A DNA stretch of 64,000 nt, taken from assembly GCF_003334305.1 (NCBI RefSeq), contig NZ_QOWS01000021.1. One strand, given 5' to 3'. How positions within the stretch are numbered: position 1 is the first letter of the stretch; every line of letters begins with the position of its first letter. Shown piece after piece: positions 2,690 to 55,024 of the stretch. The translations under genes were made by a program, and so were the position numbers. Below the pieces are notes generated by a model. It was not told the DNA's origin. It did not search any database and was given only the letters and a program-made list of their open reading frames with translations. The stretch is from Escherichia coli. Its GTDB lineage: Bacteria; Pseudomonadota; Gammaproteobacteria; Enterobacterales; Enterobacteriaceae.

Positions 2690-5648
2690 CCTTAATCGCG
2701 TCATCGGATGGTCTGGTTTACTGCTGACGTCTTTATTGAGTACCAGCGCACTCGCAGACAATATCGGCACCAGCGCAGAAGAGCTGGGGCTGAGCGATTA
2801 TCGCCATTTTGTTATTTATCCCCGTCTCGATAAGGCGCTGAAGGCACAGAAAAATAACGACGAAGCAACCGCCATCCGCGAATTTGAATATATACACCAG
2901 CAGGTGCCGGATAATATTCCGCTGACTTTATACCTTGCGGAAGCCTATCGCCATTTTGGTCATGATGACCGGGCGCGGCTGTTGCTTGAGGATCAACTGA
3001 AACGTCACCCAGGAGATGCCCGACTTGAGCGCAGTCTGGCGGCTATTCCGGTTGAAGTGAAAAGCGTTACGACTGTTGAAGAACTGCTTGCCCAGCAAAA
3101 AGCGTGCGACGCTGCGCCGACCCTGCGTTGTCGCAGTGAAGTCGGGCAGAATGCCCTGCGGCTGGCACAATTACCTGTCGCCAGAGCGCAACTGAACGAT
3201 GCGACGTTTGCTGCATCGCCAGAAGGAAAAACGCTGCGAACCGATCTGCTGCAACGGGCAATCTACCTGAAACAATGGTCCCAGGCAGATACGCTATACA
3301 ATGAAGCACGCCAGCAGAACACATTAAGCGCGGCAGAACGCCGTCAGTGGTTTGACGTGCTTCTTGCCGGGCAGCTGGACGATCGGATCCTGGCACTGCA
3401 ATCACAGGGGATCTTCACCGATCCTCAGTCATATATTACTTACGCGACCGCGCTGGCTTATCGTGGCGAAAAAGCACGCCTCCAGCATTATCTCAATGAA
3501 AATAAGCCGCTGTTTACCACGGACGCACAAGAGAAAAGTTGGCTCTATCTGTTATCTAAATACAGCGCCAACCCCGTTCAGGCATTGGCGAATTATACGG
3601 TGCAGTTTGCCGATAACCGCCAGTATGTTGTTGGCGCGACGCTACCGGTGCTGTTAAAAGAAGGTCAGTACGACGCAGCGCAAAAACTGCTCGCCACCCT
3701 CCCCGCCAATGAAATGCTTGAGGAGCGTTATGCTGTCAGCGTGGCGACCCGTAACAAGGCTGAATCTCTGCGTCTGGCACGATTGCTGTATCAGCAAGAA
3801 CCGGCAAATCTTACCCGCCTGGATCAACTGACCTGGCAACTGATGCAGAACGAGCAGTCACGCGAAGCTGCCGATTTATTGCTGCAACGCTATCCTTTCC
3901 AGGGCGATGCGCGTGTCAGCCAGACTTTAATGGCGCGACTGGCGTCTCTGCTGGAAAGTCATCCTTACCTGGCAACGCCGGCGAAGGTGGCGATTTTATC
4001 GAAACCCTTACCGCTGGCGGAGCAACGTCAGTGGCAAAGTCAGTTGCCGGGTATTGCAGATAATTGCCCGGCAATAGTTCGCTTGCTGGGCGATATGTCG
4101 CCTTCCTACGATGCTGCCGCCTGGAACCGTCTGGCAAAGTGTTATCGGGACACGCTACCCGGTGTGGCGCTGTATGCATGGCTTCAGGCCGAACAACGAC
4201 AACCGAACGCCTGGCAACATCGTGCGGTAGCCTATCAGGCGTATCAGGTTGAGGACTACGCCACCGCACTGGCGGCCTGGCAGAAAATCAGTCTTCACGA
4301 CATGAGCAATGAGGATCTGCTTGCTGCTGCCAATACCGCCCAGGCGGCAGGAAATGGTGCAGCTCGCGATCGCTGGCTACAACAGGCAGAACAACGTGGA
4401 CTGGGAAACAATGCCCTCTACTGGTGGCTGCATGCGCAACGTTACATTCCTGGTCAGCCGGAACTCGCACTGAGCGATCTCACGCGCTCAATCAATATTG
4501 CGCCTTCTGCCAACGCTTACGTTGCGCGGGCGACAATTTATCGCCAACGTCATAATGTCCCGGCGGCGGTGAGTGATTTGCGCGCCGCGCTGGAACTGGA
4601 ACCGAATAATAGCAACATCCAGGCAGCGCTTGGTTACGCCTTGTGGGATAGCGGTGATATCGCACAGTCGCGGGAAATGCTCGAACAGGCGCATAAAGGG
4701 CTTCCGGACGATCCGGCACTGATCCGACAACTGGCCTACGTGAACCAGCGTCTGGATGACATGCCTGCGACGCAGCACTACGCCCGGCTGGTGATTGATG
4801 ACATTGATAATCAGGCGCTGATAACCCCACTGACCCCAGAGCAAAATCAGCAACGCTTCAATTTCCGCCGTTTGCATGAGGAGGTCGGTCGCCGCTGGAC
4901 GTTCAGTTTCGATTCTTCTATCGGCTTGCGTTCCGGGGCAATGAGCACCGCTAACAATAATGTCGGCGGCGCAGCGCCAGGGAAAAGCTATCGTAGCTAC
5001 GGGCAACTGGAAGCCGAGTACCGCATCGGACGCAATATGCTGCTGGAAGGCGACCTGCTCTCAGTTTATAGCCGCGTCTTTGCCGATACCGGAGAAAACG
5101 GGGTGATGATGCCGGTGAAAAATCCGATGTCCGGCACCGGTCTGCGCTGGAAGCCGCTGCGCGATCAGATCTTTTTCCTCGCCGTCGAACAGCAGTTGCC
5201 GCTGAACGGGCAAAATGGCGCATCCGATACCATGCTGCGCGCCAGCGCCTCATTCTTTAATGGCGGCAAATACAGCGACGAATGGCACCCGAACGGTTCA
5301 GGCTGGTTTGCCCAAAACCTGTACCTCGATGCGGCGCAATATATCCGCCAGGATATTCAGGCGTGGACGGCAGATTATCGCGTCAGCTGGCATCAGAAGG
5401 TAGCTAACGGACAGACTATTGAGCCTTACGCTCACGTTCAGGACAACGGCTATCGTGATAAAGGCACTCAGGGCGCGCAGCTTGGCGGAGTCGGGGTCCG
5501 CTGGAATATCTGGACCGGCGAGACGCACTACGACGCCTGGCCGCACAAAGTCAGTCTCGGCGTCGAGTATCAACATACCTTTAAGGCGATTAATCAACGT
5601 AACGGAGAGCGCAACAACGCGTTTCTCACCATTGGAGTGCACTGGTAA
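2676..5648 (+). CDS. nfrA: Outer membrane protein NfrA (phage N4 adsorption protein A), TPR-rich, 990 aa
   Basis: ORF 2655-5648; internal Met at codon 8 gives a signal-peptide-like N-terminus (MKENNLNRVIGWSGLLLTSLL); synteny with nfrB. Confidence 0.85.
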   Translation: MKENNLNRVIGWSGLLLTSLLSTSALADNIGTSAEELGLSDYRHFVIYPRLDKALKAQKNNDEATAIREFEYIHQQVPDNIPLTLYLAEAYRHFGHDDRARLLLEDQLKRHPGDARLERSLAAIPVEVKSVTTVEELLAQQKACDAAPTLRCRSEVGQNALRLAQLPVARAQLNDATFAASPEGKTLRTDLLQRAIYLKQWSQADTLYNEARQQNTLSAAERRQWFDVLLAGQLDDRILALQSQGIFTDPQSYITYATALAYRGEKARLQHYLNENKPLFTTDAQEKSWLYLLSKYSANPVQALANYTVQFADNRQYVVGATLPVLLKEGQYDAAQKLLATLPANEMLEERYAVSVATRNKAESLRLARLLYQQEPANLTRLDQLTWQLMQNEQSREAADLLLQRYPFQGDARVSQTLMARLASLLESHPYLATPAKVAILSKPLPLAEQRQWQSQLPGIADNCPAIVRLLGDMSPSYDAAAWNRLAKCYRDTLPGVALYAWLQAEQRQPNAWQHRAVAYQAYQVEDYATALAAWQKISLHDMSNEDLLAAANTAQAAGNGAARDRWLQQAEQRGLGNNALYWWLHAQRYIPGQPELALSDLTRSINIAPSANAYVARATIYRQRHNVPAAVSDLRAALELEPNNSNIQAALGYALWDSGDIAQSREMLEQAHKGLPDDPALIRQLAYVNQRLDDMPATQHYARLVIDDIDNQALITPLTPEQNQQRFNFRRLHEEVGRRWTFSFDSSIGLRSGAMSTANNNVGGAAPGKSYRSYGQLEAEYRIGRNMLLEGDLLSVYSRVFADTGENGVMMPVKNPMSGTGLRWKPLRDQIFFLAVEQQLPLNGQNGASDTMLRASASFFNGGKYSDEWHPNGSGWFAQNLYLDAAQYIRQDIQAWTADYRVSWHQKVANGQTIEPYAHVQDNGYRDKGTQGAQLGGVGVRWNIWTGETHYDAWPHKVSLGVEYQHTFKAINQRNGERNNAFLTIGVHW

Positions 5649-7483: not shown

Positions 7484-7528
7484 AGGGCAAAGCGGAAACG
7501 GATAAGACGGGCATAAATGAAGAAGAAA

Positions 7529-7573
7529 TGGCGCGCCCTGCAGGATTCGAACCTGCGGCCCACGACTTAGAAG
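7529..7573. repeat. attL: 45-bp partial copy of the tRNA-Arg 3' end (pauD-like remnant)
   Basis: tggcgcgccctgcaggattcgaacctgcggcccacgacttagaag is identical to 54073-54117; coordinates approximate. Confidence 0.85.
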
Positions 7574-7995
7574 TTCCTAGAACGACATTTTAAGTCAACA
7601 AATTACCGCGCCATCTCTGCGCTCACACGTCCCACTACCTCAAAACATGTAAAGCCTTGCAAGCCATTGTGAGGCCTTATGTGTCTCAGTTTTGTCCCTC
7701 TTTTTTGTACTAAAAAACATAGCAATTGAGGATAAACCTCATGCTATTTTCGCTTATATGCCTTTAAAGGCATGGCGCTTAAATAGATAAAAACACCACA
7801 AAAGCATAAAAAACCACACAGTAAAACCGCAACATAAAACAATAACAGATAATTAAACCAAAAACAGATAGCGCATTGTGATAATCATTCAATACTAAAC
7901 AAAATATAAACAGTGGAGCAATATGTGATTGACTCATTAAGTTAGATATAAAAAATACATATTCAATCATTAAAACGATTGAATGGAGAACTTTT

Positions 7996-52098: not shown

Positions 52099-52150
52099 GT
52101 TCGCATTCATCCTCAAGCGTATTAACCAACAATTCAGGGATTAATGGAAG

Positions 52151-52369
52151 ATGGCAGACATCATTGATTCAGCATCAGAAATCGAAGAATTACAGCGCAA
52201 TACAGCAATAAAAATGCGTCGTCTGAACTACCAGACTGTATCCGCAACTCATTGTTGTGAGTGTGGCGATCCGATAGATGAGCGAAGACGCCTGGCTGTT
52301 CAGGGTTGTCGGACTTGTGCAAGTTGCCAGGAGGAGATCGAACTTAAGAACAAACAATGGGGACTGTGA
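52151..52369 (+). CDS. TraR/DksA-family C4 zinc-finger protein, 72 aa
   Basis: CxxC…CxxC motif (CCECGDPIDERRRLAVQGCRTCASC). Confidence 0.7.
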   Translation: MADIIDSASEIEELQRNTAIKMRRLNYQTVSATHCCECGDPIDERRRLAVQGCRTCASCQEEIELKNKQWGL

Positions 52370-52416
52370 TGGCCTCAAAGCAGCAAATTTCAACATCGTC
52401 CAACTGAGGTGTAAAA

Positions 52417-52695
52417 ATGTTCAGAATCATTTTTCCTAACACCTGGTACGTCGACCACCACGGCACTCCCTGCAAAATCCTGCGTTCTACCCACAACAAA
52501 GTTCACTACATCCGAAAAGGCAGAACATGTATCGCCAGCATGTTCCGCTTTAATCATGACTTTGAACCTGTGAATAAAGCTGATGCAGATCAGATAGCAG
52601 AAGAGATCGAAACGGCAGAACACATTAAGAAGTTACGTGACATGCGTTCAAAAAGCAGAGGTAACCATGGAATCATACAGCCTCACACTCGATGA
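52417..52695 (+). CDS. Hypothetical protein, 92 aa
   Basis: ORF only. Confidence 0.35.
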   Translation: MFRIIFPNTWYVDHHGTPCKILRSTHNKVHYIRKGRTCIASMFRFNHDFEPVNKADADQIAEEIETAEHIKKLRDMRSKSRGNHGIIQPHTR

Positions 52696-53038
52696 GGCCT
52701 GTCAGTTTCTTAAGATATCCAGACCAACCGCCACCAACTGGATACGAACAGGCCGCCTACAGGCAACACGTAAAGATCCAACCAAGCCAAAATCTCCTTA
52801 CCTCACAACACGGCAAGCCTGCATTGCGGCGCTTCAGTCTCCGCTGCATACTGTCCAGGTGAGCGCGGGTGATGGCATAACAGAGGAAAGAAAATGTCAC
52901 TCTTCCGCAGAAATGAAATATGGTATGCCTCGTATTCGCTCCCGGGCGGGAAACGAATTAAGGAATCTCTTGGCACAAAGGACAAGCGGCAAGCTCAGGA
53001 GTTGCACGACAAGCGAAAAGCAGAACTCTGGCGAGTAG
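52667..53038 (+). CDS. xis: Putative excisionase (Xis-like HTH protein); overlaps the int start
   Basis: ORF 52637-53038; internal Met [31 protein letters not shown] has an HTH; lies immediately upstream of int. Confidence 0.45.
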
Positions 53039-54057
53039 AAAAGCTAGGGGATTTACCTGATGTCACTTTTGAAGAGGCCTGCCTAAGATGGCTTGAGGAA
53101 AAAGCTGATAAAAAATCTCTCGATTCAGATAAAAGCCGGATTGAGTTCTGGCTTGAACATTTTGAGGGTATAAGGCTTAAAGATATCTCGGAGGCAAAGA
53201 TTTACTCTGCTGTAAGCAGAATGCATAACAGAAAGACGAAAGAAATATGGAAACAGAAAGTTCAGGCCGCCATCAGGAAAGGTAAAGAACTGCCTGTTTA
53301 TGAACCAAAGCCAGTATCAACTCAGACAAAGGCAAAGCATCTTGCCATGATAAAGGCCATTCTCCGTGCTGCAGAACGCGACTGGAAGTGGCTGGAAAAA
53401 GCGCCTGTCATCAAGATACCAGCGGTCAGAAACAAGCGAGTCAGATGGCTGGAAAAGGAGGAAGCAAAACGCCTTATTGATGAGTGCCCCGAACCACTGA
53501 AATCTGTCGTCAAGTTTGCGCTGGCAACTGGTCTGAGAAAGTCGAACATCATAAATCTGGAATGGCAACAAATCGACATGCAGCGACGAGTTGCCTGGGT
53601 GAATCCAGAAGAGAGCAAATCAAACCGCGCCATTGGTGTGGCGCTGAACGATACCGCCTGTAAAGTGTTGCGTGATCAAATAGGCAAGCATCACAAATGG
53701 GTGTTTGTACATACCAAGGCGGCTAAGCGAGCAGATGGAACATCAACGCCTGCGGTCAGGAAGATGCGCATCGACAGCAAGACATCATGGCTATCAGCTT
53801 GTCGTCGTGCAGGAATTGAAGATTTCCGTTTCCATGACCTCAGACACACCTGGGCAAGCTGGCTGATTCAGTCAGGCGTCCCATTATCAGTGCTTCAGGA
53901 AATGGGCGGATGGGAGTCCATAGAAATGGTTCGTAGGTATGCTCACCTTGCGCCTAATCATTTGACAGAGCATGCGAGGAAAATAGACGACATTTTTGGT
54001 GATAATGTCCCAAATATGTCCCACTCTGGAATTATGGAGGATATAAAGAAGGCGTAA
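52894..54057 (+). CDS. intD: Tyrosine integrase (IntD-like), 387 aa
   Basis: Matches DLP12 integrase as recalled; C-terminal catalytic region (…[15 protein letters not shown]…RYAHL); adjacent to tRNA-Arg. Confidence 0.9.
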
Positions 54058-54072
54058 CTGATTGAATTGTAA

Positions 54073-54117
54073 TGGCGCGCCCTGCAGGATTCGAACCTGC
54101 GGCCCACGACTTAGAAG
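54073..54117. repeat. attR core (3' 45 nt of argU), identical to 7529-7573
   Basis: Direct repeat seen in sequence. Confidence 0.85.
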
Positions 54118-54149
54118 GTCGTTGCTCTATCCAACTGAGCTAAGGGCGC
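54073..54149 (-). tRNA. argU: tRNA-Arg (anticodon UCU), argU; prophage attachment site
   Basis: Reverse complement reads GCGCCCTTAGCTCAGTTGGATAGAGCAACGACCTTCTAAGTCGTGGGCCGCAGGTTCGAATCCTGCAGGGCGCGCCA (77 nt, cloverleaf-compatible, CCA end); coordinates approximate. Confidence 0.9.
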
Positions 54150-54391
54150 GTTGATACCGCAATGCGGTGTAATCGCGTGAATTATACGGTCAACCCTTGC
54201 TGAGTCAATGGCTTTTGATCTGGTTGCTGAACAAGTGAACGACCGCGTCTGATTTTCTGATTTATTTCGCTATAGCGGCAAACAAACACACACCGCTGCG
54301 CGTCTGAATCAAGAAAACCCGTATTTTCATGTATCAAAGTACAATTTACCGCCCTAACGGAAAATTGTCCGCTCCTATGAGACTGGTAACT

Positions 54392-55024
54392 ATGAAACCA
54401 ACGTCGGTGATCATTATGGATACTCATCCTATCATCAGAATGTCTATTGAAGTTCTGTTGCAAAAAAACAGTGAATTGCAGATTGTCCTGAAAACGGATG
54501 ATTACCGCATAACCATCGATTATCTCCGAACCCGTCCTGTTGATTTAATCATTATGGATATAGACTTGCCCGGAACAGACGGTTTTACCTTCCTGAAAAG
54601 GATCAAACAAATCCAGAGCACAGTGAAAGTGTTATTTTTATCATCGAAATCAGAATGCTTTTATGCTGGCAGAGCGATACAAGCTGGTGCTAACGGTTTT
54701 GTCAGTAAATGCAATGATCAGAATGATATTTTTCATGCCGTTCAGATGATCCTCTCCGGATACACGTTTTTTCCCAGCGAAACGCTTAACTATATAAAAA
54801 GCAATAAATGTAGTACGAATAGTTCAACGGTCACTGTACTATCTAATCGTGAAGTGACCATATTACGTTATCTGGTTAGCGGATTATCTAATAAAGAAAT
54901 TGCCGATAAGTTATTACTTAGCAATAAAACAGTTAGTGCGCATAAATCTAATATTTATGGCAAGCTAGGTTTGCATTCAATTGTAGAACTTATCGACTAC
55001 GCCAAATTATACGAATTAATATAA
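54392..55024 (+). CDS. fimZ: LuxR-family response regulator FimZ, 210 aa
   Basis: ORF 54329-55024; internal Met gives MKPTSVIIMDTHPI…; REC domain plus LuxR HTH. Confidence 0.85.
   Translation: MKPTSVIIMDTHPIIRMSIEVLLQKNSELQIVLKTDDYRITIDYLRTRPVDLIIMDIDLPGTDGFTFLKRIKQIQSTVKVLFLSSKSECFYAGRAIQAGANGFVSKCNDQNDIFHAVQMILSGYTFFPSETLNYIKSNKCSTNSSTVTVLSNREVTILRYLVSGLSNKEIADKLLLSNKTVSAHKSNIYGKLGLHSIVELIDYAKLYELI

Follow-up and report, generated by a model that had tools for sequence, protein, structure and literature searches.

Gene layout at the argU end of the prophage

The window, a 64,000-nt stretch of an Escherichia coli genome (contig NZ_QOWS01000021.1), carries a short excisionase gene, xis, whose last codons share their DNA with the first codons of the integrase gene, int. 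The features on which the analysis rests are as follows.

7527..7573, strand not applicable: the other att core copy, at the end of the prophage distant from int (47-bp exact direct repeat)
52417..52695, + strand: upstream DUF4222 gene (PHROG 285, E=2.5e-38), whose last 29 nt overlap the start of xis
52637..52666, + strand: 5′ extension of the mechanically called reading frame from a GTG, probably untranslated and in no homologue a conserved N-terminus
52658..52661, + strand: xis Shine-Dalgarno GAGG, read from the sequence, 5 nt before the ATG at 52667
52667..53038, + strand: xis coding sequence, P22/DLP12-type excisionase, 123 aa plus TAG stop (from homology and the common start)
52667..52846, + strand: winged helix-turn-helix DNA-binding domain, Xis residues 1-60 (HTH_17; AlphaFold2 block-mean pLDDT 82-94)
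52883..52887, + strand: int Shine-Dalgarno GAGGA, inside xis codons 73-74, a motif kept across loci
52894..53038, + strand: dual-coding segment of 145 nt, Xis 76-123 in one frame and Int 1-48 in frame +2
52894..54057, + strand: int, tyrosine integrase of P22/DLP12 (IntD) type, 387 aa (from the reading-frame list, Pfam and PHROG)
52928..52975, + strand: predicted tail helix, Xis 88-103, with conserved L98 and L102, followed by Q104-R105-T106 (AlphaFold2 block-mean pLDDT about 50-68)
54071..54117, strand not applicable: att core copy beside int, sharing sequence with the 3′ part of argU (exact 47-bp direct repeat of 7527-7573)
54073-54149, minus strand: argU, tRNA-Arg(tct) (ARAGORN)

The reading-frame list gives the upstream gene as 52637..53038 (+), 133 aa from a GTG codon. 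The ATG at 52667 is equivalent to the start in all homologues, which open with M-E/D-x, and it is preceded by the GAGG; the gene is therefore placed at 52667..53038, and the GTG at 52637 becomes a by-product of mechanical calling. On this comparison translation almost certainly begins at ATG 52667 (123 aa) rather than GTG 52637, and the first 30 nt of the called frame are probably not translated. Counted with the stop codon, the overlap with int is 53038-52894+1 = 145 nt, with int in frame +2 relative to xis. An earlier reading of the letters alone, hereafter the sequence-only reading, had described an open reading frame that carries a helix-turn-helix and runs about 145 nt into int in another frame. 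Both points hold, the second exactly and the first through a Pfam HTH_17 match to residues 6-36 of the 123-aa form (E=6.8e-8).

For the integrase itself, PHROG 10426 covers Int residues 1-192 and Pfam Phage_integrase residues 184-355 (E=2.6e-46), and the gene is annotated as intD in an identical E. coli locus. Its ribosome-binding site lies inside xis, and a GAGG or GGAG is found 6-9 nt upstream of the int ATG in all 12 loci with upstream context printed. Downstream of int come argU and then fimZ; upstream of xis there are several small early genes together with bet and exo of lambda type. Since the 47-bp repeat stands at both ends, the prophage spans about 46.6 kb. The intact xis, the intact int and the two att cores together suggest an excisable element, and the argU prophage appears complete and potentially able to excise, unlike DLP12 in K-12. 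Just upstream of argU a near-consensus sigma-70 promoter is found at 54181-54208 (minus; TTGACT, 16-nt spacer, TATAAT; 11 of 12 matches), which is presumably the argU promoter.

Some database proteins join xis to other coding regions. Proteins of 199-207 aa with both DUF4222 (PF13973) and HTH_17 (hits P0001, P0003-P0006 and P0023) are 94-100% covered by the window Xis; these apparent fusions are probably frameshifts or sequencing errors. Two further hits from E. coli, P0007 and P0008 (210-212 aa), bear the name ‘recombinase family protein’ and have a resolvase-type domain (PF00239) together with an Xis-like region, 99% identical to the window Xis along 96% of its length. This suggests that the xis locus of some strains has been fused or rearranged.

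The excisionase gene and its relatives

The window Xis aligns over its full length with the annotated excisionases of P22 (78% identity) and epsilon34 (80%), collinear with both and free of frameshifts or stops. It matches the PHROG 2907 “excisionase” family with E=5.9e-46, residues 1-116 falling on profile positions 2-117 of 117. Alongside the HTH_17 match, the TIGR01764 ‘excise’ model gives 27.7 bits, slightly short of its curated cutoff of 28.8. The layout agrees with the family as well: xis lies upstream of a P22/IntD-type int and overlaps it in frame +2, the att site is at a tRNA gene, and the same xis-int-overlap arrangement recurs in 13 other loci. With 123 aa and a stop 145 nt inside int, the protein also falls within the range of the family (115-123 aa, with the xis frame ending 124 or 145 nt past the start of int). 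Among the Pfam, PHROG and PDB matches there is none to a lambda Xis family. We therefore hold with high confidence that the reading frame is the xis of a complete P22/DLP12-type lambdoid prophage in argU and that its overlap with int is real; what had been put forward as a putative xis is confirmed by the full-length match to P22-type excisionases. In tblastn searches, 161 phage records cover at least 80% of the window Xis protein, and 996 of 5,426 complete E. coli genomes contain 80% or more of the 801-bp region.

Experimental knowledge of this family comes from P22. Its Xis, once purified, was shown both to bind att DNA and to bend it (Mattis et al. 2008, J Bacteriol 190:5781, as cited in PMC7498355), and P22 delta-xis mutants served as excision-defective controls (PMC8575938); for the xis-int module see also Leong et al. 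1986 (J Mol Biol 189:603).

DLP12 and phage 21 had been proposed as the comparison for this gene, and only the first is apt. The K-12 DLP12 gene xisD (b4633) is the same gene, in the same fimZ-argU-intD-xisD locus, and is identical at residues 45-117 except for S107N. Phage 21 was rejected as a comparator; its DNA matches only over the upstream DUF4222 gene (query 14-247). The comparison should instead be made with P22, epsilon34 and K-12 DLP12 xisD. The P22 locus has the same order of xis, int and att at a tRNA gene, the same +2 relation of int to xis and the same int Shine-Dalgarno inside xis. The excisionases of epsilon34 (gp24), Serratia phage BZS1 and APSE-2, of 122-123 aa, share the 145-nt overlap and the stop at Int codon 48/49; the window Xis is 69% identical to that of BZS1 and 46% to that of APSE-2. 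These three belong to other hosts and phage backbones, whereas the window element is a lambda-like prophage with bet and exo.

The K-12 copy raises the question of whether the gene is alive in the window. In K-12, xisD is a pseudogene because its first 44 codons, which encode the N-terminal helix-turn-helix, are missing. A pseudogene call has also been made closer to the window: in the E. coli A7 locus, whose 801-bp region is 100% identical, PGAP annotates xis only as a 22-aa HTH pseudogene, ‘incomplete, missing C-terminus’, equivalent to window positions 52767-52832 (1768-1833 of locus L001). Both facts would suit a decayed remnant that is no gene here. We consider that very improbable, given that the window copy retains the 44 codons lost in K-12, is collinear from end to end with the P22 and epsilon34 proteins, keeps its Shine-Dalgarno and lies in a prophage with both att cores. 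The PGAP call may instead be an artefact of the long overlap, since several phage records annotate int and omit xis; we suspect that the overlap itself is what leads pipelines to under-annotate xis or to mark it as a pseudogene. For annotation, the practical point is that this xis is real and full length, starting at ATG 52667, and that automatic annotation often overlooks it or calls it a pseudogene.

The overlap across the family and selection on the Xis tail

That xis overlaps int is already known, the arrangement being annotated for P22 and many relatives. The annotated overlap is 124 nt in P22, ES18, SfII and HK446 and 145 nt in epsilon34, BZS1 and APSE-2. We compared 14 phage and prophage loci, including Hafnia, Proteus, Citrobacter and Enterobacter phages, some with Xis proteins only about 36-50% identical. 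In all 14 the xis frame stays open until it reaches a stop at one of just two places, 124 or 145 nt past the int start, while the third frame of the overlap contains 1-5 stops per locus. Full-length homologues in a large protein database are likewise 115/116 or 122/123 aa long, the other hits being annotated partials, N-terminally extended calls or fusions. The sequence-only reading had allowed that the true Xis might be shorter and had named a conserved earlier stop in homologues as the observation that would count against the long form. Such a stop was found neither in the 14 loci nor among the full-length database homologues, and the suggestion does not stand for the C-terminus; Xis is shorter than the mechanically called frame only at its N-terminus, by the difference between GTG 52637 and ATG 52667.

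The choice between the two stops is set by a single integrase residue. Where Int has Leu41-Lys42, the Leu codon (CTG or CTA) followed by A gives the xis frame a TGA or TAA. With Arg41 this stop is lost, and xis then reads on to the codon for Val/Ile48 (GTA or ATA, then G or A). Xis length, 116 or 123 aa, is thus a consequence of Int residue 41. The 116-aa Xis of P22 ends 21 nt earlier than that of the window, with a 124-nt overlap, because P22 Int has Leu41-Lys42 (CTG AAA, giving TGA); the window Int has Arg41, so that its Xis carries seven extra residues (EKQNSGE). This comparison of sequences shows that dual coding is ancestral to P22-type xis-int modules as a whole and has been conserved in them.

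An open second frame is in itself weak evidence for coding. When synonymous codons were resampled for the observed Int N-terminus, the probability that the xis frame is open through the overlap, given the Int protein and local codon usage, was 0.39 for the window, with values of 0.15-0.52 for the 13 further loci. The value of 0.39 means that the open frame in one genome is not significant alone, and stop-codon avoidance was rejected as a stand-alone proof of coding. The case for the overlap rests instead on homology and on conservation across the family.

The synonymous sites of int are distinctly more constrained inside the overlap than outside it. Pooled pS is as low as 0.61 there, whereas eight 40-codon windows further downstream in int have values of 0.79-0.87. 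Between divergent groups, the fraction of identical codons at identical residues is 0.546 in the overlap, while 60 sliding windows elsewhere in int have a mean of 0.377 (sd 0.034) and a maximum of 0.481; the excess is present in every between-group pair. Among invariant degenerate Int columns, a single codon is used in 14/14 loci at 2/14 columns in the overlap and 0/89 outside it (Fisher p=0.017), and one codon is used in at least 12/14 loci at 5/14 and 3/89 invariant columns, respectively (p=0.001). Codon heterozygosity is 0.39 in the overlap and 0.57 outside (p=0.0085).

The fixed codons keep particular residues of the Xis tail. Int Leu26 is CTT in all 14 loci, a codon used for only 19% of Leu residues elsewhere in int; it keeps Xis L102, where CTA would give a stop and CTG a Trp. 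Int Asp30 is GAC in 14/14 loci and keeps Xis T106, which is invariant in 58 proteins. In this way Xis L98, L102 and T106 are conserved through positions that are synonymous in int, while the int-synonymous sites of Gly19, Gly27, Ala34 and Leu37 vary freely. Freedom at these neighbouring sites argues for selection on Xis codons rather than on a contiguous nucleic-acid motif. In the opposite direction, the second codon position of the xis frame is its most variable (0.425, against 0.238 and 0.263 for the others), from which it follows that Int dominates the shared segment and the tail is largely a passenger of Int. Some of its residues are dictated outright: Xis C77 is forced by Int Met1-Ser2 (the TG of ATG plus the T of Ser2) and G86 by Int Trp10. 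With moderate confidence, the pattern of sequence constraint points to an Xis tail that is translated and under weak purifying selection, visible at the int-synonymous sites. The point that this analysis adds to a known arrangement is a small one, namely that the overlapped tail appears weakly selected and that the length of Xis is set by an Int residue.

Whether such a tail does anything for the protein is a further step. We lean towards a functional tail, with appreciable room for other explanations. One of these holds that functional Xis is confined to its N-terminal ~60-87 residues and that the rest is selectively neutral read-through, arising from an Int sequence that rarely makes stops. 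The per-locus open-frame probabilities of 0.15-0.52 would allow it, as would the existence of two different stop positions, and it fits a tail that is weakly conserved, most variable at its second codon positions, in part forced by Int and predicted to be disordered bar one low-confidence helix. What neutral read-through leaves unaccounted for is that the int-synonymous sites of the overlap are significantly more constrained than those elsewhere in int, that the fixed codons keep L102 and T106 while the sites of Gly19, Gly27, Ala34 and Leu37 vary, and that an earlier stop occurs in none of the full-length homologues; we regard it as unlikely on these grounds. A second possibility is that the long overlap couples or balances expression, ribosomes on xis opening or occluding the int ribosome-binding site and so setting the Xis:Int ratio. 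The int Shine-Dalgarno and ATG do lie within the translated xis frame in every locus, and a function at the level of the mRNA could account for part of the extra synonymous constraint. The position of the constraint argues otherwise: the synonymous sites under the strongest constraint lie in int codons 22-39, which is 65-115 nt past the start and not around it, and dropping the first 10 int codons leaves the identical-codon excess essentially unchanged in 5/6 group comparisons. The xis stop, 124-145 nt past the int ATG (145 nt in the window), excludes termination-reinitiation coupling, and int has its own conserved GAGG/GGAG upstream of its ATG. Nor does the int ribosome-binding site lie in an unusually stable RNA structure, the fold of 52840-52940 having an MFE of -23.7 kcal/mol and z=0.16 against shuffles, which leaves masking of this site by RNA structure as a means of translational coupling unsupported. 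Coupling is, in our estimate, slightly less probable still than a neutral tail.

Predicted structure, mechanism and promoters

An AlphaFold2 model of Xis was built with 58 homologues. Beyond the confident winged helix of residues 1-60, it has a low-confidence linker (residues 61-87), then the predicted tail helix 88-103, and after this helix an end that is basic and disordered in the model; over residues 76-123 there are 10 K+R and 4 D+E. The nearest solved folds to the N-domain are mycobacteriophage Pukovnik Xis (4j2n) and BldC (6ama), which resemble it over about 55 residues (profile E=0.0011; Foldseek target-normalised TM-score 0.75-0.76) at an identity of 19-22%. Unlike the window Xis, these proteins have about 55-70 residues and lack a long tail. 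On the other side of the shared segment, Int residues 1-50 are predicted to form a three-stranded sheet plus a helix. A sheet plus helix is what an arm-type DNA-binding domain would be expected to have, as in lambda Int. On these models, one frame of the overlap encodes the Xis tail and the other encodes most of the Int N-domain.

A mechanism can be proposed from these parts. The 123-aa Xis consists of an N-terminal winged helix (HTH_17, residues 1-60), a flexible linker and a basic C-terminal tail with the predicted helix 88-103. By homology with P22 Xis, it would bind repeated sites in one att arm, bend the DNA and direct Int towards excision. The last 48 xis codons occupy the same DNA as the first 48 int codons, the int side encoding the predicted sheet of the Int N-domain and the beginning of its helix, with Int dominating the evolution of the shared segment and the Xis tail weakly selected. 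Both genes would share a transcript with the leftward early operon (bet, exo ... xis, int), and int would be translated from its own Shine-Dalgarno inside xis.

Lambda provides an analogy for what the tail could contact. Lambda Xis (72 aa) is also a small winged-helix recombination directionality factor encoded just upstream of int and overlapping it. It belongs to a different family, and similarity between its sequence and that of the window Xis was undetected in the searches run here. Its C-terminal tail contacts the Int N-terminal domain, and the lambda xis/int overlap is only about 20 nt. By this analogy, the shared 124-145 nt may hard-wire the co-evolution of two interacting surfaces, with the Xis tail (helix 88-103 and the QRT that follows) contacting Int and encoded by the same nucleotides as the Int arm-binding domain. 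This is a speculative idea to which we give low odds. If it were true, a mutation in Xis or Int would change its partner too, and the Leu41/Arg41 polymorphism of Int would switch Xis between 116 and 123 aa; the overlap would lock in specificity by preventing mosaic recombination from separating cognate Xis-Int pairs. An AlphaFold2 fusion of Xis, a linker and Int(1-72) showed no docking of the tail on the Int N-domain, in what was a weak test with a shallow alignment (13 paired sequences) and without interface metrics; the tail had a block-mean pLDDT of about 35-61, with no rise, and pTM was 0.28.

Lambda also has a cII-dependent pI promoter at the start of xis. A promoter of this kind was rejected for the window, where a search of the + strand found neither a cII site (TTGC-N6-TTGC with at most one mismatch, 52300-54071) nor a sigma-70-like promoter (52100-54400). 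In related phages, perfect TTGC-N6-TTGC motifs occur beyond attP on the strand opposite int, at 3040-3065 in P22 (locus L002), 3031-3056 in epsilon34 (L003) and 3116-3131 in HK446 (L012), and the epsilon34 record annotates them as putative CII-binding sites. Motifs so placed would drive transcription antisense to int. P22 has another TTGC-N6-TTGC upstream of xis, at 1364. The counterpart arm of the window, at the far prophage end (about 7649-7670), holds degenerate copies only (TTGCAAGCCATTGT).
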